NCBI RefSeq assembly: GCF_988242995.1
Contig: NZ_OZ547043.1
Length of the DNA: 64,000 nt
Strand: one strand, 5' to 3'
How positions within the stretch are numbered: position 1 is the stretch's first letter; every line of letters begins with the position of its first letter. Positions 3,580 through 56,111 of the stretch are shown one piece after another. The notes beneath the pieces were generated by a model. It searched no databases. It was not told the origin of the DNA and saw only the letters and a list, made by a program, of their open reading frames with translations. A program made the translations under genes and the position numbers.

Positions 3580-4068
3580 ATGAGTGAGATAGTGATACGC
3601 CATGCTGAAACGCGCGATTACGAGGCCATCAGGCAGATTCACGCCCAGCCGGAGGTGTATTGCAACACGCTACAGGTGCCTCATCCTTCCGATCATATGT
3701 GGCAGGAGCGACTCGCCGATCGTCCCGGCATCAAGCAACTCGTCGCCTGTATTGATGGAGACGTCGTGGGCCATCTCACCATTGACGTGCAACAGCGCCC
3801 ACGCCGCAGTCATGTTGCAGATTTTGGTATTTGTGTCGACTCCCGTTGGAAGAATCGCGGCGTCGCCAGCGCCCTGATGCGAGAGATGATTGAAATGTGC
3901 GACAACTGGTTGCGGGTAGATCGTATTGAGCTAACGGTGTTCATCGATAACGCGCCAGCAATTAAGGTCTATAAAAAATTTGGATTTGAGATTGAAGGGA
4001 CTGGCAAGAAGTACGCATTACGTAATGGTGAATATGTCGATGCGTATTATATGGCGCGGGTGAAGTAA
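3580..4068 (+). CDS. yhhY: GNAT-family N-acetyltransferase
   Basis: Internal ATG of ORF 3487-4068 gives 162 aa starting MSEIVIRHAETRDY; GNAT motifs (RWKNRGVASALM); matches remembered YhhY. Confidence 0.88.
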   Translation: MSEIVIRHAETRDYEAIRQIHAQPEVYCNTLQVPHPSDHMWQERLADRPGIKQLVACIDGDVVGHLTIDVQQRPRRSHVADFGICVDSRWKNRGVASALMREMIEMCDNWLRVDRIELTVFIDNAPAIKVYKKFGFEIEGTGKKYALRNGEYVDAYYMARVK

Positions 4069-4303
4069 GATAGTGCCCTTTTTCTGAGATGGAAAAAGGG
4101 TGTCATTCAAAATCGGCATACCTTCCTTTAATGTATTTATTTTCCCAATAAATATATAAGATTTACCTCATAATTACGTCCTAAAGTGTAATATTTTATT
4201 TTTTAATATATACGCCTACAATTTCCTGGAGTAAATAAATAACAATTAACAAGCATAATAGTGCCATTGATAAAATAGCATGCCATAAAAGGACTTTTCA
4301 TGG

Positions 4304-5482
4304 ATGAGTAATATTGTTTACCTGACAGTAACGGGAGAACAACAAGGAAGCATCTCCGCAGGTTGTGGGACTTCTGAGTCTACAGGTAATCGCTGGCAGA
4401 GCGGGCATGAGGATGAAATATTTACATTCTCATTCTTAAATAGTATTACTAATACGGGGCTTGGTTCACAGTTCCATGGTATAACATTTTGTAAATTAAT
4501 TGATAAAAGCACTCCATTATTTATTAATTCCATTAACAATAATGAACAATTATTTATGGAATTTGACTTCTATCGAATAAATAGATTTGGTAGATGGGAA
4601 AAGTATTATTATATACAACTAAGAGGCGCTTTTTTATCGGCTATTCATCATCAGATCATTGAAAATCAACTGGATACAGAAACATTAACTGTTAGTTATG
4701 AATTTATCCTCTGTCAACATCTTATCGCAAATACCGAGTTCAGCTATTTGGCACTCCCTGAAAATTATAACTGTTTGTTTTTACCAAATTCAAAAAACCA
4801 AACAAATAATCGTTTCAAAACGTTAAACAGCAAAGCTATTGGCAGGCTACTTGCTGCTGGTGGCGTATACAATGGGAACATTGAAGGATTCAGAGATACT
4901 GCGGAAAAACTGGGTGGAGATGCAATAAAAGGCTATGATCAAATACTAAATGAAAAAACAGCGGGCATAGCGATAGCAACAGCATCTATTCTTTTAACAA
5001 AGCGTTCTAATGTTGATACATATACAGAAATAAATAGTTACTTAGGCAAACTTAGAGGTCAACAAAAACTTCTTGATGGTATAGACATAATAGAAACAAT
5101 ATACATTAAGAGACCTTCAAAAGACTTAGCTAACTTACGAAAGGAGTTTAATAAAACTGTAAGAAAAAATTTTCTTATCAAACTTGCAAAAACCTCCGAA
5201 GCATCTGAAAGATTCAACGCCGAAGACCTTTTAAGAATGAGAAAGGGCAATGTTCCTCTAAATTATAATGTTCACCATAAACTATCTCTAGATGATGGTG
5301 GTACTAATGATTTCGAAAATTTAGTATTAATCGAAAACGAACCATATCATAAAGTTTTTACTAACATGCAATCACGAATAGCTAAGGGAGTATTAGTAGG
5401 TGAAAGCAAAATCACTCCCTGGGCCATTCCATCTGGCTCAATTTATCCTCCCATGAAAAATATTATGGAACCCACAAAATGA
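4304..5482 (+). CDS. yhhZ: Hcp-like protein fused to a C-terminal HNH/colicin-DNase-type nuclease domain (polymorphic toxin)
   Basis: 392 aa; N-terminal Hcp-like segments (FTF, IDKSTP, FYR); C-terminal HNH motif VHHKLSLDDGGTNDFENLVLIENEPYHKVF resembling colicin E9 DNase; AT-rich. Confidence 0.85.
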   Translation: MSNIVYLTVTGEQQGSISAGCGTSESTGNRWQSGHEDEIFTFSFLNSITNTGLGSQFHGITFCKLIDKSTPLFINSINNNEQLFMEFDFYRINRFGRWEKYYYIQLRGAFLSAIHHQIIENQLDTETLTVSYEFILCQHLIANTEFSYLALPENYNCLFLPNSKNQTNNRFKTLNSKAIGRLLAAGGVYNGNIEGFRDTAEKLGGDAIKGYDQILNEKTAGIAIATASILLTKRSNVDTYTEINSYLGKLRGQQKLLDGIDIIETIYIKRPSKDLANLRKEFNKTVRKNFLIKLAKTSEASERFNAEDLLRMRKGNVPLNYNVHHKLSLDDGGTNDFENLVLIENEPYHKVFTNMQSRIAKGVLVGESKITPWAIPSGSIYPPMKNIMEPTK

Positions 5483-5973
5483 TGACTAAAACCCAAATAA
5501 ATAAATTAAAAAAAATGATGAATGATTTAGACTATCCATTTGAAGCACCGCTCAAGGAATCATTTATTGAAAGTATAATCCAAATAGAATTTAATTCTAA
5601 TTCAACTAATTGCCTGGAGAAATTATGTAATGAAGTTAGTATTCTTTTTAATAATCAACCTGATTATCTTAATTTTTTAAGAGCAATGGATGGATTCGAA
5701 GTTAATGGATTACGATTATTTAGCCTCTCGATTCCAGAACCTTCAGTTAAAAACCTTTTTACCGTAAATGAATTTTATAGAAATAATGATGATTTCATAA
5801 ACCCTGATCTACAAGAACGGTTAGTGATCGGGGATGATAGCATTTCAATATTTACTTATGACATTAAAAGTAACTTTTTTGAAATTAGAGATAATATTGG
5901 CACCGAAAATATATTCAGTTCGTTTAGTGATTTCTCTTCATTCTTAAACGAAATCATGGACAGTTGTTCATAA
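5479..5973 (+). CDS. yrhA: putative cognate immunity protein of the YhhZ nuclease toxin
   Basis: 164 aa ORF whose ATG overlaps the yhhZ stop (ATGA); AT-rich; position matches K-12 yrhA, but here uninterrupted. Confidence 0.7.
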   Translation: MMTKTQINKLKKMMNDLDYPFEAPLKESFIESIIQIEFNSNSTNCLEKLCNEVSILFNNQPDYLNFLRAMDGFEVNGLRLFSLSIPEPSVKNLFTVNEFYRNNDDFINPDLQERLVIGDDSISIFTYDIKSNFFEIRDNIGTENIFSSFSDFSSFLNEIMDSCS

Positions 5974-6422
5974 TAATCAAAAGGTAACAAAAATCATTGT
6001 AAACCATGCCATCTTTTTAGAGATTACCAGCAGAAAATTCCTTGTTCGAAACTTAGCAATGCAAGCTATGGAAAAACTTACAACGGAACTACACTCCTTA
6101 AGTGAGATGGACCGAAGACATGTAATCTCTATTTTAGCCGAAATAGCTAATGGCTATGATGATTTTAGTGACATGTTGATTTAGTTAGAATTTCACCCGA
6201 ATCATAAGATTCTGATATCTTAAATAAGAAAATCCCGTTCGACGTTCTGAAAAAGAAATCACAAAATATTAGCAGATACTTATTTCGTGACTGTATATTA
6301 TCCGATGAACTTTTTTCAAAACCAGCATTTAATAATATCTTTGACGAAGATGAACGCGTCTTTTCTCAAAGTATAACGCAAGAATAATAATATAACGATC
6401 AACAATAATATTTATTATAATT

Positions 6423-6707
6423 ATGATTACTTATCACGACGCATTCGCGAAAGCGAACCATTACCTTGATGATGCAGATCTCCCTGCCGTCATCACTCTG
6501 CATGGACGTTTTAGCCAGGGCTGGTATTTCTGTTTCGAATCACAAGAATTTCTTGAATCTGGAGATGAGGCCGCGCGTTTAGCCGGTAACGCACCTTTTA
6601 TTATTGATAAAGACAGTGGTGAAATTCATTCCCTTGGAACGGCAAAGCCGCTGGAAGAATATCTACAGGTTTATGAAATAAAAAAGGCTACCTTCGGCTT
6701 GCCCTGA
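6423..6707 (+). CDS. yrhB: small heat-stable chaperone-like protein
   Basis: 94 aa ORF at the position of K-12 yrhB upstream of ggt. Confidence 0.75.
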   Translation: MITYHDAFAKANHYLDDADLPAVITLHGRFSQGWYFCFESQEFLESGDEAARLAGNAPFIIDKDSGEIHSLGTAKPLEEYLQVYEIKKATFGLP

Positions 6708-6744
6708 CAATACGGCCCTCTTCCCACGAAGAGGGCCGCTAACC

Positions 6745-8490
6745 TTAATAACCCGCCGTTAAATCATCCACCGAGCGCGGATCGGATGCGCCGTACAACT
6801 CGCCGTCCGGCCCAACCATAATGCTTTGTGTACTACCCATCGCCTCTTTCAGCGCCACTTTCTGACCTTTTGCTTCCAGCAGCTTGAGCGTATCCGGGCT
6901 AAACCCTTTTTCGACACGCAGCTCGTCCGGCAACCACTGATGGTGGAAACGCGGTGCATTGGTCGCTTCGGCGACATTCATACCATAATCGATGCTGTTC
7001 ACCACCATTTGCAGCACGGTAGTGATGATCCGGCTACCGCCTGGGCTACCAGTCACTAACCAGGTTTTACCGTCTTTCACCACAATGGTTGGGGACATCG
7101 ACGACAGCGGGCGTTTATTCGGCCCGACCGCGTTGGCGTCACCACCCACCAGCCCGTAAACGTTCGGTACGCCAGGTTTGGCGGAGAAATCATCCATCTG
7201 GTTATTAAGCAGAATACCGCTCTCGCCCGCGACAATGCCCGTCCCGAAGGTGGTGTTCAGCGTATAGGTCACCGCTACCGCGTTGCCGTCTTTATCCACC
7301 ACTGAGTAATGGGTAGTTTGATTACTCTCATAAGGCGCAAGCTTGCCGGGGCGAATTTCGCTGGATGGCTTCGCTTTATTGATATCGATTTGATCGGCAA
7401 TAGATTTGGCATAGGCTTTATTGGTCAGCGCCTGCCACGGAACTTTGACAAAATCCGGGTCGCCAAGATATTCCGAGCGGTCGGCGTAGGCATATTTCTC
7501 AGCTTCTGCCATGATTTGCATCGCGTCGGCGCTGCCAAAGCCGTATTTCTTCATATCGAAGTTTTCCAGAATATTGAGGATTTGTACGATATGGATCCCG
7601 CCGGAAGATGGCGGTGGCATGGAGTAAACCTGATACCCGCGATAATCGCCGCTAATCGGTGTACGTTCGACCGCTTTATACGCCGCTAAATCTTCTTTAG
7701 TGATCAAGCCACCGTTTTTCTGCATCTCCTGAGCGATCTGCTCCGCTATTGTGCCTTTGTAGAATTCGTCCGGGCCGTTTTCGGCAATCATCTCCAGGCT
7801 CTTTGCCAGGTTCGCCTGCACCAGCTTGTCGCCCTTTTTCAGCGGCGCGCCCTCTTTCCAGAAGATAGCCTTGCTGTTTTCGTGATTCGGCAACACTTCG
7901 CTACCGTAGGTTTTGAGATCGTCAGCCAGCGCGTCATTAACGATAAAACCATCGCGTGCCAGTTTAAACGCCGGCTGCACCACTTTATTTAACGGCATGG
8001 TGCCGTACTTCTCCAGCGCCAGCGAGAAACCTGCGACCGTACCTGGCGTACCGGAGGCCAGATGCGAAGTGAGTGATTTTTTGCTGTCCGGGTTGCCCTG
8101 GTCATCGAGGAACATATCGCGGGTCGCTTTGGCGGGTGCCATTTCGCGGAAATCGATAGCGGTGGTATTGCCATTTTTCGAGCGGATCAGCATAAAACCA
8201 CCACCGCCCAGATTCCCTGCCTGCGGATGCGTTACCGCCAGCGCGTAGCCCACCGCCACGGCGGCATCAACGGCATTCCCGCCCTCCTTTAGAATATCTA
8301 CCCCCACCTGAGTGGCAGTAGCATCTACAGACGCCACCATCCCCTGTTTCGCGCGTACCGGATGAAAGACATCTTCCTCCACGCCGTAAGAAACAGGAGA
8401 CGGCGCAGGTGGCGCGGCTACCGTACTAAAACAACTTCCTGTGAACAGAGCAGCAATGGCCACCCGGCGTAAAAACGTCGGTTTTATCAT
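6745..8490 (-). CDS. ggt: gamma-glutamyltranspeptidase
   Basis: Start refined to MIKPTFLRR (signal peptide) within ORF 6745-8517; 581 aa; conserved catalytic Thr region (NQTTHYSVVD) and GGG motifs. Confidence 0.95.
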   Translation of the reverse strand: MIKPTFLRRVAIAALFTGSCFSTVAAPPAPSPVSYGVEEDVFHPVRAKQGMVASVDATATQVGVDILKEGGNAVDAAVAVGYALAVTHPQAGNLGGGGFMLIRSKNGNTTAIDFREMAPAKATRDMFLDDQGNPDSKKSLTSHLASGTPGTVAGFSLALEKYGTMPLNKVVQPAFKLARDGFIVNDALADDLKTYGSEVLPNHENSKAIFWKEGAPLKKGDKLVQANLAKSLEMIAENGPDEFYKGTIAEQIAQEMQKNGGLITKEDLAAYKAVERTPISGDYRGYQVYSMPPPSSGGIHIVQILNILENFDMKKYGFGSADAMQIMAEAEKYAYADRSEYLGDPDFVKVPWQALTNKAYAKSIADQIDINKAKPSSEIRPGKLAPYESNQTTHYSVVDKDGNAVAVTYTLNTTFGTGIVAGESGILLNNQMDDFSAKPGVPNVYGLVGGDANAVGPNKRPLSSMSPTIVVKDGKTWLVTGSPGGSRIITTVLQMVVNSIDYGMNVAEATNAPRFHHQWLPDELRVEKGFSPDTLKLLEAKGQKVALKEAMGSTQSIMVGPDGELYGASDPRSVDDLTAGY

Positions 8491-50497: not shown

Positions 50498-51561
50498 TGC
50501 GGCAACCTCACCACCAGGTCGTCAGGCCACGGAAGTTCTTCATTCACCCGCACCCACGCTACGCCCGGCAAACCGGTTTTGACATATTCCAGATGCTGCT
50601 GGAGTAATTCCGGTGGGATACGCGCTTTGACGCGGAACATCAGTTTCAGCCGCTCATCGCTGGTTTCGACGGTTTTTGGCGTGAACTGGGCGACGCTGGC
50701 GACAAAACTGATGGTTGCAGGAATACGCAGATCTGGCGCGGCATCGAGGATCAGCCGGGCTTCACCGCCCAGTTTCAGCGTGCCCGCCTGTTCGGTTGGC
50801 AGGAAGAAGGTCATATAGACGTCGCTCAGATCGACCATATTCAGCACCCGACCGCCTGCCGCCAGCACTTCCCCTGGCTCGGCAACCCGATACTGCACGC
50901 GTCCGTCACGCGGGGCTTTCAGTTCGCTGTCATCGATATCTGCGGCAATGCGCCGTTCAGTGGCTTGTGCGGCTTCGACGCGTGTTTGCGCCTGAATGAT
51001 ATTGGTGCGTGCCGCTTCTATAGCGGCTTTAGAAGCCGAAACCTGGGCTTTTGCTGATTCCAGCGCAGCTCGGGCGCTCTCAGCGGCGGCGCGATCGTCA
51101 TCCAGCTGTTGCGCAGAAATAGCCCCTCGTTGGGCGAGCGAGCGGGAACGCGTATGACGTTTGGCAACGGAGTCCAGTTCGGCCTGGCGTTGATTGACCA
51201 GCGACTGTGCGGCACGAGTTTCGCTTTGGCGTTGCTCCAGCAAAGCCTGCGCGGCGGCAACGGCGCTTTGTGCTTCTTTGATTTGCGCGATGGCTTCCAG
51301 TCGCTGTTCCTGCAACACGCGAGTATCCATCTTCGCCAGCACTTCACCTTCGCGAACAAACTGGCCTTCTTTCACCAGAATGGTGTCGATACGCCCGGCA
51401 ATTTTGCTGGCGATATCCACTTCCGTCGCTTCAATGCGCCCATTGCTGACGGCAAAGCCTTCCGGCACACCCGCTGGGCGCAACAGCCACCACGCCACGA
51501 TAGCGGCCACCGCCAGTAACCCGACAACCCACCACGCCAGATGGCGCTTACTCTTATCCAT
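50494..51561 (-). CDS. yhiI: HlyD-family membrane fusion protein
   Basis: 355 aa; N-terminal TM anchor then long coiled-coil; 4-bp overlap with rbbA. Confidence 0.92.
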
Positions 51562-52029
51562 AATCGACCCGCCATAATCCCTGTAAGCAAACGACGCGTG
51601 TTACAACTGCCGCCGAACGACGTTCAGCGGATTCTTCCATCCGGGATAAGAAGGAAACGGCAAATACGACCAGCGCGCAGAGCATTGAGCGCCAACGTGG
51701 AAGGCTTAGTGAAAACGGGTAGTAATGTTGTCATCATCAGCATTCCTGGCCGTAAATGAAACACGCATACTCATAAGTGTGATCTATAAAACTGGCTGAC
51801 AAAACGGTATCCATCCTGTTGGATAGCGTTTCACGCCTGTTCAGTTGCAGGAACAGAGCATTCCTTATTACGTTTTATCAACAGTCTCAACCAGATAGTA
51901 ACATTAATATTCATGTTGTCTATGGTTCAGAGCTGTAACATTGTGCGCCTTCTAATCAAAGGCATAAGTCCATTTTTGTTTTTTTCATGCTGGTAAGACT
52001 TCCAGGGAGTGGTTATCTCAGGCCCTGCA

Positions 52030-52745
52030 CCAGGGTTAATTTGGCAATAAATATCCTCCGGCATAGCCGGAGGTTTTTCAAATGCGCCTATAAGGCTCTC
52101 TTACCAGCCGCGCCCTAACAGGCGCACACGATCTGACATTTGCATCCAACTTCGTTACTTACGGCCCGTAAACGGGCTGCCCGGATAGGGAATCGATAAC
52201 TGCTCTCCCATTTTATCCTCTTCAAGCTGGTGCTTTATGTAATCCTGTATCTTCGCCGTGTTCTTACCCACTGTATCGACGTAGTACCCTCTGCACCAGA
52301 ACTCCCTGTTCCTGTATTTGAATTTCAAATCACCAAACTGCTCGTAAAGCATCAGACTGCTTTTCCCTTTCAGATATCCCATAAAGCCGGATACGCTCAT
52401 TTTGGGCGGGATCTCCACAAGCATATGGATATAATCTGCACAGCATTCAGCTTCCAGAATCCGTACGCTTTTCCACTCACACAGCTTTCTCAAAATACTG
52501 CCTATTGCTCTACGCTTCTCTCTGTAGAACACCTGTCTTCGGTATTTTGGCGCAAAAACTATGTGATATTTACAGTTCCATCGGGTGTGCGCTAAGCTCT
52601 TTTCGTTCCCCATTGGGACCCCCTTTTGATTTCTTGTTTGACACTTGCAGTTGCCAGACCGCAAAGTGTTTTAACAAATCAAAAGGGGTTTTAATAACTG
52701 GCTCAAAGCTGAAAGCTTTCCGGAACCCCCAGCCTAGCTGGGGGT
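52030..52745 (-). mobile_element. IS200-like insertion sequence (IS200/IS605 family, tnpA only); boundaries approximate
   Basis: About 0.7 kb element containing a Y1/HUH transposase gene, with a perfect GC-rich hairpin (aacccccagc cta gctgggggtt) at the tnpA-upstream end as in IS200 left ends; absent from the K-12 arrangement. Confidence 0.7.
52155..52613 (-). CDS. tnpA: IS200/IS605-family Y1 (HUH) transposase TnpA
   Basis: 152 aa from MGNEKSLAHTRWNCKYHIVFAPKYRR; HUH-type motif (YIHMLV) and catalytic Tyr region; start refined from ORF 52155-52664. Confidence 0.85.
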   Translation of the reverse strand: MGNEKSLAHTRWNCKYHIVFAPKYRRQVFYREKRRAIGSILRKLCEWKSVRILEAECCADYIHMLVEIPPKMSVSGFMGYLKGKSSLMLYEQFGDLKFKYRNREFWCRGYYVDTVGKNTAKIQDYIKHQLEEDKMGEQLSIPYPGSPFTGRK

Positions 52746-54260
52746 TTTCTGTGCACAATTATGCATGCTGAACATTCTTCCAGCATGTTTACTGTCACGG
52801 GCGTTAAGACCTAAAACTGTCCCCGTTTCACCTATGCGTTCTCTTCCACCATTACCGTTATGTGCAACAACTTGATTTATACCTAACATTTGTGAGCATG
52901 CTAATAGTTCTTCAAGTTTCGGTCTGTAATCTGTCGAAACAGAAAAATAACGATTAAAGGATCGACAAGAGATAGCCCGGCTAGTTTTAAACTTTTTACC
53001 ATTAATGATGGCATGATGCTTCTTATTAATAATTGCCGCTAATTCGACCGGATCGAGAGCATTGGTCATTTCATCAATAGAGACTGTTATCGGTCCTATA
53101 ATGTAACGTTTTCGCTGATCATCAAAAGTTATCCCATGATGATTTGCCATTATTTTGTATTTGGGGTCATAGAAACATACAGGATAATCTTTTATCCCAG
53201 CGTAGGTATCCTCATCAAGTGGTTTCATACGCGTGAAGTTCTGCATATAGTTACCATTGCAATTCGTTTCATGATTACCAGCTAATACATGAACATTTTT
53301 ATTAATACTCATTATGCGTTTTAACAAATCGATGATAAATTGATCGCCACAGATATTACTAAATCGATCGCCGGTTTGGTCACCCAGAAACGTACATGGC
53401 GTCACTGCGCCCTGATTAATAACTAAATATGGCTGAAGACTTTCTAAAACCACATCTCTTCTGTTCAGAATACTGATTATTGTATTAACATTAATGTCTA
53501 GTTCCTCATTAATTTTTTCCCTTAATAAAACGTTGAGAACTTCATCTTCTATATTAAGCAACTGGCTAAGAAAATTTACTTCTTCAGCCATAATTCCCAA
53601 ATGTCCCGTTGCGAAAAGCGCGTACAAAACTGCACCGACTGAGCCATCGGTATCACCAAAATAGGTTGGTCTGGTACTTGTGGGATCAACGGGTGAACAA
53701 TTGGAGAAATAGATTCTGTCAGCGAACTGGGGTTTTATAATTGTTTCGAATTTAATATCAGATACATTGTATTGCGATATTTTCCAGTTCCAGATGGGTT
53801 TGTACGACTCAGTAACTGCAACATCATTAGCATTATCATTTACTGTCATATTATTAAGTAAATAAACAATGCTGCACCAATTAATATCGGTATCATCAAG
53901 AGGGCAACCGTAATTTTTACTATTAATTGTCACAATAAACTGATAACTATTATTCCTACGTAGAATATGGGCACGCATGCCCGATAGCATACTATATTTT
54001 TCTGAATGATTCGTTTCTATGGTAAATGAAATTTTGTCATCTTGAAAAGATTGTTGGAAACGTTCTATTTGCCAATCATCAATTTTTTCCACAACTTCAC
54101 CGAGCATTGTCCTGGCAATACTTGATATATCATCACCTATACCATTTGCAATATACCCAAACAGTTCTTTAGTGAAGTTAGTAACATGCTCTTGCACCAT
54201 ATCATTTGTTGCGATAGTCGTTATACTGTCGTTAGTACCTGCCACAGTTCCAATTTTCAT
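52734..54260 (-). CDS. yhiJ: DUF4049-type protein with C-terminal PPP-like metallophosphoesterase motifs; 3' end abuts or is altered by the IS200 end
   Basis: 508 aa; motifs GDTDG, GDQTGDRF, LAGNHE in PPP order; SD GAGGT upstream; paralog of the next gene; AT-rich. Confidence 0.8.
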   Translation of the reverse strand: MKIGTVAGTNDSITTIATNDMVQEHVTNFTKELFGYIANGIGDDISSIARTMLGEVVEKIDDWQIERFQQSFQDDKISFTIETNHSEKYSMLSGMRAHILRRNNSYQFIVTINSKNYGCPLDDTDINWCSIVYLLNNMTVNDNANDVAVTESYKPIWNWKISQYNVSDIKFETIIKPQFADRIYFSNCSPVDPTSTRPTYFGDTDGSVGAVLYALFATGHLGIMAEEVNFLSQLLNIEDEVLNVLLREKINEELDINVNTIISILNRRDVVLESLQPYLVINQGAVTPCTFLGDQTGDRFSNICGDQFIIDLLKRIMSINKNVHVLAGNHETNCNGNYMQNFTRMKPLDEDTYAGIKDYPVCFYDPKYKIMANHHGITFDDQRKRYIIGPITVSIDEMTNALDPVELAAIINKKHHAIINGKKFKTSRAISCRSFNRYFSVSTDYRPKLEELLACSQMLGINQVVAHNGNGGRERIGETGTVLGLNARDSKHAGRMFSMHNCAQKTPS

Positions 54261-54521
54261 CTTTTACCTCATATAATTCACCGCGAGGAATACATAGTTA
54301 TCATTTAATCTTATGACAAACACCTCATGTTCGATGGAAAAATAATTATATTTTGCACAAATCATTCAGCCTTAAAGCATAATATGAAATTTCTTATCTC
54401 ATAGTAGAGAAAGTCCCTAAAGATTGTAGAGGCGTCATCAGAACATGCCTCTACAATCGATTAAGAAAAACTATGAAATACTGGCAGGATTAAAAAGATA
54501 TACCACCGTATTCATGGAGTT

Positions 54522-56111
54522 TTAATGAGATTGAAAACAACTAAGCCCTGGGACACCTTTTTTATCACCACGTTCGTTAGGTGCTATCTTCCAGGAATTT
54601 AGCCCCATGGTATAATTATCAATTTCTTGATGCTGATCTACCCCTAATCCATAATGGCCATATTTCTGTTTACTTTTTTTGAGCGCCTGTCCACATTTGA
54701 AGATATCTTCAGGTTTTGGTCTGAAAGCAGTAGTGTTATTAAAATAATTGTCATATACAGGTGTGGATGCTATAGCATTGCTTCTAATTAGATGGATAAG
54801 ACGATCATCCATGTGTTGCTTATGTTTTTTATTAAATATATTTGCTAATTCCTCAGGATCAATTGGGTCTTTCATCTGATTAAATGGAACCTGCAAAGCA
54901 CCTAGACAATAACATTCATTTTCTTCATTTCTTATTATTCCGTGATGACTGGTTAAAACTTTCGTTTCTGAGTCATAATTACAAACATCGAGCGTTTTAA
55001 TTAAGTTATATCTATCACCGGAAGAGAGTTTATGATTTGCTAGTCGTGCACTATAGTTACCATTAAAATTGATTTCATGATTTCCAGCCAGAACGACGAC
55101 ATTTTTATTTATACGACTATCTTTATTACCCTCCATATTTCGCATAGAATTTAGCAAAGTAAGGATATATTTATCACCAAAAATAGTACTAAATCTATCG
55201 CCTGTATGATCCCCAAGGAAGATACAAGGGGTAATCGCATCGCCTTTTAAAAAAACATGTTGATGCAACTCATTCAAGATCATGTCTCTCGTATCTAATA
55301 AAGTGAAAAGTTTTTTCAATTTTTTATTTTCATATGCGAATGAAGCCATGTCTTCGTGTTTTAATAATTGACATAATAAACTCCACCCCTCTCCCCTGAT
55401 GCCTATATGCCCTGAAACGAGCAATGCATAAAGTACAGCGCCCACTCTTCCATCTGTATCGCCAAAATAAGCCGTGTTGGGATTTTTTGGGTTAATCACA
55501 CCACACTGTTTATAAAAGTCTATTTTTGAAAAAACAGATTCAACATAGCTATCAAACTTTTCCTTAGTAAACGTCTCTTTAGAGACAGCCCAACGCCAGT
55601 CAGCTTTAAAATTACCGCTAAGAAGAGTAAAAAAATTTTCAGGTATGATAGAAAACCCATCAACTTTATAAATTATGTCTGATTTATCCCCGGAGAAATT
55701 AATAAAATAATAACCGTCCTTACGCTCAATCGTAACGGTAATGGGAGACGATAATTTTATCACATGGTTATTGTCTGGTATAATTGTAAAGATAAACGTG
55801 TCAGTAGTATTATCGGCGAAACTATTATATTCTTTAATATCTATAGATGGCTCACTATTGTAAAACCACAGTTTTTCTATCTGAGGACTATGTTCAGTTA
55901 CGTTCCAGCAGCCATGTTGCAGGAAATAGATGATATGCAGGCCAAAATCGTTATCTATTTGCGAATGTTTATCCAGCTTATCAATTTCAACTATCTTTGA
56001 ACGATGTTTTTTATCAACATTGCCATGGTGTTGATGACTGTTAACTTTATCTGAATGCTTATCTTGATGGTTTGAAGAGAAGTGCTTAAATATATTGTGA
56101 AATACTTTCAT
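54522..56111 (-). CDS. yhiL: DUF4049-type paralog with PPP-like metallophosphoesterase motifs (intact here)
   Basis: Motifs GDTDG, GDHTGDRF, LAGNHE; His-rich N-terminal segment; start uncertain (56111 chosen, longest ORF reaches 56195). Confidence 0.7.
   Translation of the reverse strand: MKVFHNIFKHFSSNHQDKHSDKVNSHQHHGNVDKKHRSKIVEIDKLDKHSQIDNDFGLHIIYFLQHGCWNVTEHSPQIEKLWFYNSEPSIDIKEYNSFADNTTDTFIFTIIPDNNHVIKLSSPITVTIERKDGYYFINFSGDKSDIIYKVDGFSIIPENFFTLLSGNFKADWRWAVSKETFTKEKFDSYVESVFSKIDFYKQCGVINPKNPNTAYFGDTDGRVGAVLYALLVSGHIGIRGEGWSLLCQLLKHEDMASFAYENKKLKKLFTLLDTRDMILNELHQHVFLKGDAITPCIFLGDHTGDRFSTIFGDKYILTLLNSMRNMEGNKDSRINKNVVVLAGNHEINFNGNYSARLANHKLSSGDRYNLIKTLDVCNYDSETKVLTSHHGIIRNEENECYCLGALQVPFNQMKDPIDPEELANIFNKKHKQHMDDRLIHLIRSNAIASTPVYDNYFNNTTAFRPKPEDIFKCGQALKKSKQKYGHYGLGVDQHQEIDNYTMGLNSWKIAPNERGDKKGVPGLSCFQSH

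Follow-up and report, generated by a model that had tools for sequence, protein, structure and literature searches.

Does the tnpA gene that separates yhiI from the body of yhiJ in this Escherichia coli DNA belong to an element lying beside yhiJ or inside it, and can that element still move? The gene sits in the order yhhJ-rbbA-yhiI-yhiY-yhiJ-yhiL on contig NZ_OZ547043.1 (RefSeq assembly GCF_988242995.1), of which we analysed a stretch of 64,000 nucleotides, referred to below as the window. A first-pass annotation of the same DNA had read the locus as an IS200-like element inserted at or within the 3' end of yhiJ.

Identity and exact ends of the element

Comparison of the window with empty sites revealed a complete 711-bp copy of IS200C at positions 52048-52758, with tnpA on the minus strand (Table 1). 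By the convention of the family, in which the target TT stands outside the left end (LE) and the final TT is counted in the right end (RE), the span becomes 52046-52756; the junctions carry a TT(G) ambiguity of 2-3 nt, the side to which the TT belongs being unassignable from sequence alone. Where the first-pass annotation had placed an element at 52030-52745, its presence stood, but its bounds ran 16-18 nt over one end and 11-13 nt short of the other.

In the orientation of the element, every copy reads flank-TT, then GTGCACAG...GGATATTTA, then TT-flank, and the ends were the same in 24 other IS200C copies. Subtracting the empty from the filled site leaves exactly 711 bp and no target-site duplication; because TT stands at both junctions in 24/24 copies, it represents the target motif or the end of the RE rather than a duplication specific to this site. 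The two termini (TTGTGCACAG... and ...GGATATTTA) are not mutual inverted repeats: terminal inverted repeats are absent, and both ends carry subterminal hairpins.

Relative to eight annotated copies, the window element showed 2-6 differences per 711 positions, its ends and interior being 99.2-99.7% identical to theirs, and the label assigned to the matching copies by PGAP is IS200C. The transposase matched the Pfam family Y1_Tnp (PF01797) at E = 5e-37 and 127 bits (cut-off 23) and the NCBIfam equivalog transpos_IS200 (NF033573) at 142 bits (cut-off 55), and its homologues in the PDB (2ec2, 2f4f and 2a6m) are IS200/IS605 transposases of solved structure, IS608 TnpA among them; these matches bear out the earlier reading of a 152-aa Y1/HUH enzyme in an IS200-like element. 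It is encoded by the sole ORF with protein-family support in the 711 bp, and no tnpB was present. A resemblance of the ends to IS200 had also been claimed, and was corroborated by an Rfam match to STnc490 (144.6 bits) and by IS200C copies with identical ends.

Judged by these matches, the element is the catalogued E. coli IS200C, of the IS200 group within the IS200/IS605 family. Its transposase carries a substitution, H61Y, which bears on activity and not on identity, since the DNA is more than 99% identical to IS200C. A search of the 64-kb window for the LE hairpin found no second IS200 copy, as that hairpin occurs only once.

Table 1. Coordinates of the features described at the yhiJ locus (window positions)
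Feature	Position	Strand	Basis or remark
IS200C copy, 711 bp	52048..52758	-	Empty sites in K-12 and Ecol_316; LE is the high-coordinate end
tnpA, 152-aa Y1 (HUH) transposase	52155..52613	-	Pfam PF01797, NCBIfam NF033573, PDB
Codon 61, TAT (Tyr) for CAT (His), H61Y	52431..52433	-	SNP at 52433
Truncated yhiJ, 508 aa	52734..54260	-	Native residues 1-502 plus IS-encoded AQKTPS
New yhiJ stop TAG, loop of the LE hairpin	52734..52736	-	ORF list and sequence
Stranded yhiJ 3' remnant, native codons 503-540 and native stop	51927..52047	-	Collinear with K-12 L001 8969-9089
LE perfect hairpin, 10-bp stem, 3-nt loop	52724..52746	-	Folds as RNA and DNA
tnpA 5'UTR stem-loop pairing the Shine-Dalgarno sequence	52620..52688	-	RNA fold, STnc490, IS200 nt 69-138 (PMC4513863)
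Putative antisense sRNA art200, ~90 nt (inferred position)	52605..52695	+	Homology only; opposite the 5'UTR and first tnpA codons
RE subterminal hairpin, 8-bp stem, 3-nt loop	52055..52073	-	DNA fold
yhiJ target site	52759..52787	-	DNA fold -6.3 kcal/mol, 7-nt tail

Insertion within the coding sequence of yhiJ

Alignment with the empty site placed IS200C inside the yhiJ coding sequence and not in intergenic DNA, as a clean 711-bp insertion relative both to K-12 and to a 99.5%-identical strain. At the empty site K-12 reads ...ttaatttggcaa followed directly by ttatgcatgc..., where the window has 711 additional bases; likewise, the K-12 flanks that meet across the insertion point (...caccagggttaatttggcaa and ttatgcatgctgaac...) are both present in the window, 711 bp apart. 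The insertion point falls at yhiJ codons 501/502, and K-12 and the best-matching genomes read through it, in agreement with the proposal of an insertion within the 3' end of the gene.

K-12 YhiJ has 540 aa, in agreement with the approximate length given in the first-pass annotation, against 508 aa for the window product. The two proteins are identical at 478 of 502 positions (95%; BLASTP), and the alignment stops at C502, after which the window protein continues as AQKTPS. These six codons and the stop belong to the IS and are shared by all IS200C copies, so the suspicion that the final yhiJ codons were IS-derived and the native C terminus displaced was well founded; the new stop, expected inside the LE hairpin, proved to be exactly its loop. 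Beyond the element, where an alignment had been advised to look for further yhiJ codons at about 51930-52040, codons 503-540 were recovered at 51927-52047 in an orphan 3' fragment of 121 nt, the translation of which ends ...CQINPGAGPEITTPWKSYQHEKNKNGLMPLIRRRTMLQL followed by the stop. As the alignment shows, six IS-encoded residues take the place of the native 38 C-terminal residues of YhiJ.

DUF4049 (Pfam) spans residues 194-502 in window YhiJ and 194-503 in K-12 YhiJ. Because the domain ends at residue 502/503, the loss is limited to a 38-residue tail outside it, and the phenotypic effect may therefore be small. For purposes of annotation, yhiJ is here an interrupted gene, and the IS200C copy should be flagged for its active-site substitution; the locus adds another IS polymorphism of the strain-specific kind, in a functionally uncharacterised gene.

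Several further features of the neighbourhood were recorded. An ATG in the loop of the RE hairpin opens a 45-aa ORF (MPEDIYC followed by QINPG...; 51927-52064, minus strand) in frame with the stranded yhiJ codons, which is probably a chance product. The adjacent yhiL (54522-56195, minus strand) is an intact ORF that encodes 557 aa when read from a TTG start, the gene call in a related contig giving 529 aa; it is a DUF6860 plus DUF4049 paralogue of yhiJ and is annotated as a pseudogene in K-12. Motifs in YhiJ (K-12 L001 8969-10591) and YhiL recall metallophosphoesterases (GDQTGDR ... GNHE), with sub-threshold Pfam matches to Metallophos (E = 0.0065) and WipA_Phos (E = 0.031), and a PDB sequence search with YhiJ returned no homologue. 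GC content is low across yhiJ-yhiL (37.5% at 52001-56000) and at 4001-8000 (39.8%), versus about 47-58% elsewhere in the window, which suggests that these stretches are horizontally acquired DNA.

Structures at the two ends

The perfect hairpin aacccccagc-cta-gctgggggtt, previously described as being of the kind found at IS200 left ends, is unique in the window (0 chance matches expected) and lies at the same end as the STnc490 match (RF01405, IS200 5' region), which covers 52623-52746 at full length (1-124) and well above the gathering score of 56. STnc490 was the only RNA family detected when 51500-53300 was scanned against Rfam at E <= 1. Folding of the 159-nt left end as RNA (-61.5 kcal/mol, z = -4.6) produced the terminator hairpin, a small hairpin and a long stem-loop pairing the Shine-Dalgarno sequence, which reproduces the published IS200 layout. 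The Shine-Dalgarno sequence itself (AAGGGGGU, 52618-52625) lies a few bases ahead of the AUG and matches the published IS200 one exactly.

The LE hairpin of IS200 is a bidirectional rho-independent terminator that stops ~85% of incoming transcripts, and the stem-loop represses translation ~20-fold, with further repression by the 90-nt art200 (PMC4513863, PMC5435999); in Salmonella, the 5' end of art200 lies at nt 153/154 and the RNA is 90 nt long (PMC4513863). By homology, the window LE hairpin would be the terminator found at nt 12-34 of Salmonella IS200, and is presumed to be the subterminal hairpin bound by TnpA as well, while the 5'UTR stem-loop would be the translational repressor element. 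Because yhiJ and tnpA are co-oriented, yhiJ transcripts would run into the LE terminator at the new stop codon, meeting it immediately as they leave the gene. If the IS200 literature holds for this copy, any tnpA mRNA would be silenced further by the stem-loop that hides its ribosome-binding site and by antisense art200.

At the opposite end, the RE hairpin (cctccggc-ata-gccggagg) and an adjoining TTTTT occupy 52055-52078; on the IS top strand ATATTTATT comes directly after the hairpin, and on the other strand TTTTT does. It is terminator-like on both strands and folds as DNA at -13 kcal/mol (z = -3.6). A second hairpin with a T-run had been reported at 52062-52085; the structure exists, but its true position is ~7 nt to the left. 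A promoter scan found no sigma-70-like site within the IS, and its one match, at 51895-51922, was no more than shuffled sequences give.

A substitution in the HUH motif

The catalytic residues by which members of the IS200 group are recognised are only partly intact in the window TnpA: Tyr125 is present and the HUH motif is changed. The tyrosine is essential, Y125F being catalytically dead in IS200 (PMC4513863). The HUH motif binds the catalytic metal; in the window, ADHIHML has become ADYIHML, so that the first His is lost and HUH reads Y-I-H. H61Y is the sole amino-acid difference from WP_000526135.1 (in a comparison with 8/8 other copies), and a His occupies the HUH position in 8/8 other members of the protein cluster, which include Salmonella, Yersinia, Tatumella and Kosakonia homologues. 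Residue 61 aligns with H64 of IS608 TnpA, an enzyme that is inactivated by mutation of H64 (as H64A), H66 or Y127 (PMC3597680).

The allele is also very rare. A 55-nt probe for the SNP matched perfectly in 1 of 2186 records (7515 places), that record being a plasmid, and in a large protein collection the exact H61Y protein occurred in 36 index blocks versus 21,686 for the wild type; it is nevertheless on record in dozens of independent assemblies. Given this rarity and the inactivating effect of the equivalent IS608 mutation, the window copy is probably unable to catalyse its own movement and hence non-autonomous. It would be movable, or precisely excisable, only by means of wild-type TnpA from another IS200C in the same cell. 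As a natural variant of the HUH motif, H61Y could serve to mark dead copies.

Two observations concern the SNP itself. The wild-type sequence at 52433-52436 is GATC, a Dam site within codons D60-H61, which the SNP at 52433 destroys. The only complete-genome record with the SNP is plasmid NZ_AP026938.1 (L011, 54601-57655), where the annotation gives the IS200-like tnpA a CDS of 507 nt (168 codons); this gene adjoins a group II intron ltrA and has no recognisable full IS end.

Occurrence of the insertion

We searched positions 51300-53500 of the window against 5,426 complete E. coli genomes. The yhiJ flanks were found in 5,419 of these, with the best-matching genomes carrying a contiguous site of 1490 bp versus 2201 bp in the window; no genome covered >=80% of the query, and the yhiJ insertion was present in 0 of the 5426. 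Because K-12 and the listed genomes have an empty site, and the insertion occurs in none of the set, the insertion is the derived state, and the genome comparison shows it to be recent and lineage-specific. The same yhiJ-LE junction, together with the exact 508-aa product, was present in Logan contigs of two independent runs (ERR15423959 and ERR15422818), which argues against an assembly artefact. Overall, the insertion is an ordinary strain-specific IS polymorphism, already understood in kind.

Orientation and target choice

Elements of the IS200/IS605 family transpose as single-stranded DNA, insert 3' of a short target motif and prefer the lagging-strand template (PMC3597680, PMC5027513). 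The tnpA-sense strand of the window copy is the minus strand, the plus strand of the window has negative GC skew, and in K-12 yhiJ lies on the minus strand at 3.63 Mb. Together with the position of the E. coli oriC, which we take to be near 3.9 Mb, the skew and the K-12 location make the tnpA-sense strand the lagging-strand template. The orientation of IS200C here is that preferred by the family, a preference and not an absolute rule. IS200C would have entered the lagging-strand template by single-strand 'peel and paste', immediately 3' of a small yhiJ hairpin followed by CATAATT.

Why the element should have landed at this spot was addressed with 24 distinct IS200C sites, yhiJ included, of which 9 came from BLAST matches, 5 from contigs encoding the H61Y protein and 10 from contigs encoding the wild-type protein. 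All 24 had T at -5 and TT at -2/-1, mostly with T at -4, giving the motif T(T/A)NTT, which is also fitted by the right end of IS200C itself (TTATT). In 24/24 sites the motif was preceded by a hairpin, usually the intrinsic terminator of a gene, that ended 0-7 nt (mostly 3-7) before the junction. The 42-nt flanks of the real sites had a mean dG of -10.4 kcal/mol, and 75% had dG <= -8, compared with a mean of -2.8 kcal/mol and 3% with dG <= -8 among 1,635 pentamer-matched control sites (Mann-Whitney p = 4e-16). The T-rich pentamer alone was considered as the source of the hairpin association and rejected, given the 3% of controls against 75% of real sites at dG <= -8.

The yhiJ target fits the same pattern. 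On the IS top strand it reads CATGCTG-n10-CAGCATG (52764-52787), then CATAA, then the junction TT (52757-52758), so that its last five bases, TAATT, fit T(T/A)NTT, and just one other hairpin-plus-TT site exists along the sense strand of the entire yhiJ gene. A rule combining a hairpin with T(T/A)NTT would explain the landing of IS200C at this spot in yhiJ. The three intragenic sites also have hairpins, albeit weaker ones (yhiJ, -6.3; barA, -8.3; dgcN, -5.3 kcal/mol). A hairpin followed by a T-rich target mimics the right end of IS200C, where the hairpin is followed by ATATTTATT. Just 5' of the hairpin foot, each end has an A-rich run, GAAAA in the LE and AAAAA in the RE, and these runs could pair with T-rich targets in the manner of the IS608 guide sequences.

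We therefore put forward only tentatively, and as somewhat less probable than its opposite, the view that IS200C picks its targets by structure as well as sequence, inserting on the lagging-strand template 0-7 nt past a hairpin and after T(T/A)NTT, with terminators as its normal landing pads and the yhiJ site as a coding mimic of one. The hairpin may be recognised as such, may merely keep the T-rich tail exposed, or may be enriched through harmless terminator-adjacent insertions, a survivor bias that could account for part of the association. An explicit IS200 target rule was not found in the literature searched; the nearest account is a 2025-26 preprint describing terminator-like sequences upstream of IS200/IS605 elements. 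Such a rule would predict the landing sites of the widespread IS200C and explain its near-constant position just past terminators. With the H61Y variant, it makes a modest addition to what is known of the element.

Alternative explanations

We consider it very likely that IS200C arrived here by peel and paste and truncated yhiJ in a recent, lineage-specific event, with a copy that is most likely not self-mobile. A wholly intergenic element beside a 508-aa YhiJ whose TAG is native to the lineage is next to impossible, even though DUF4049 is complete (residues 194-502) in the shorter protein: K-12 and the best-matching genomes read through to a 540-aa product, 38 native codons and a stop lie in frame beyond the IS, and the last six codons and stop recur in every IS200C copy. 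The empty-site alignment refutes this reading. An error of assembly or sequencing, such as a misplaced collapsed repeat, is extremely improbable as the source of the junction or the SNP. IS200C is indeed multi-copy in many strains (up to 36 places per genome), and short-read contigs with this yhiJ allele break within the IS, but the 508-aa product and its junction came from two independent runs, each flank follows the empty site base for base, and the H61Y protein recurs exactly across independent assemblies. The insertion might instead have been kept for a benefit to the host, either because yhiJ is silenced or shortened or because the IS200 5' tnpA and art200 RNAs are supplied. A dead transposase beside intact RNA elements is how such a domesticated copy would be expected to look, and IS200-derived RNAs do regulate Salmonella host genes (PMC5435999, PMC12594629); we nonetheless regard domestication as very unlikely, with the insertion absent from the complete genomes, present in only a few read sets and bearing no sign of spread or selection.

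The remaining question is whether TnpA with H61Y has kept its activity, the Tyr binding metal in place of His; such a copy would be autonomous, and its own enzyme would have carried it into yhiJ. An identical 711/711 H61Y haplotype occurs at yhiJ and, in other strains, at rplT-pheM (L012) and icd-ymgL (L014/L017), and seven assemblies with longer contigs, of 14 kb to 3.9 Mb, contained a single H61Y copy each; the same haplotype at three loci could reflect either retained activity or mobilisation in trans. However, the SNP is found on at least four haplotype backgrounds, the local one included, and at kdsA-ldr the SNP is all that separates the H61Y copy (L016) from a wild-type copy in that same position (L032), while the wild-type version of the local haplotype occurs in about 137 records. 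These patterns make recurrent in-place mutation at least as likely as movement and, set beside the rarity of the allele and the effect of the equivalent His mutation on IS608 TnpA, leave an active H61Y enzyme unlikely. A copy that is most likely not self-mobile may still have been mobilised in trans, or its product may act as a dominant-negative subunit: TnpA is a dimer with shared active sites (PMC3597680), and so, more speculatively, a mutant subunit could poison the wild-type enzyme.

At icd-ymgL (L014/L017/L033) and kdsA-ldr (L016/L032), IS200C copies occupy the same intergenic positions in strains with divergent flanks and different IS haplotypes. These positions are either insertion hot spots or the sites of old insertions.

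Comparison with known elements

The window copy is the same element as the IS200C of E. coli (WP_000526135.1, 'IS200/IS605-like element IS200C family transposase'), from other copies of which it differs in occupying a yhiJ site that is unoccupied in 5426 complete genomes and in carrying the rare H61Y. Salmonella enterica IS200 (707 bp; named IS200F by PGAP) shares the single tnpA, the LE terminator hairpin, the stem-loop hiding the Shine-Dalgarno sequence, art200/STnc490 and the RE hairpin, and its TnpA is ~94% identical; its length departs from that of IS200C by a few nucleotides and its sequence by several percent. For IS200 the regulatory roles were demonstrated in Salmonella and, in E. coli, on plasmids, whereas for the window copy they are assigned by homology. 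In Yersinia pestis, IS1541 is an orthologous element of the IS200 group whose transposase shares the 90% protein cluster of the IS200C enzyme and carries His in the first HUH position. It has been reported between pheL and pheA, a region that elsewhere holds attenuator terminator structures (PMC3082878), but it belongs to a different species lineage and is likened to the window copy by protein only.

The mechanistic paradigms of the IS200/IS605 family, IS608 of Helicobacter pylori and ISDra2, encode a homologous Y1 HUH transposase (PDB 2a6m, E = 3e-18) and share subterminal hairpins, insertion 3' of a short motif with no duplication, and a top strand on the lagging-strand template. Unlike these elements, IS200C has no tnpB, and its target is the T-rich T(T/A)NTT in place of TTAC or TTGAT. 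The hairpin that precedes the target in 24/24 IS200C sites likewise has no counterpart in the IS608 model, in which recognition goes no further than base-pairing between the LE and 4 nt of target.
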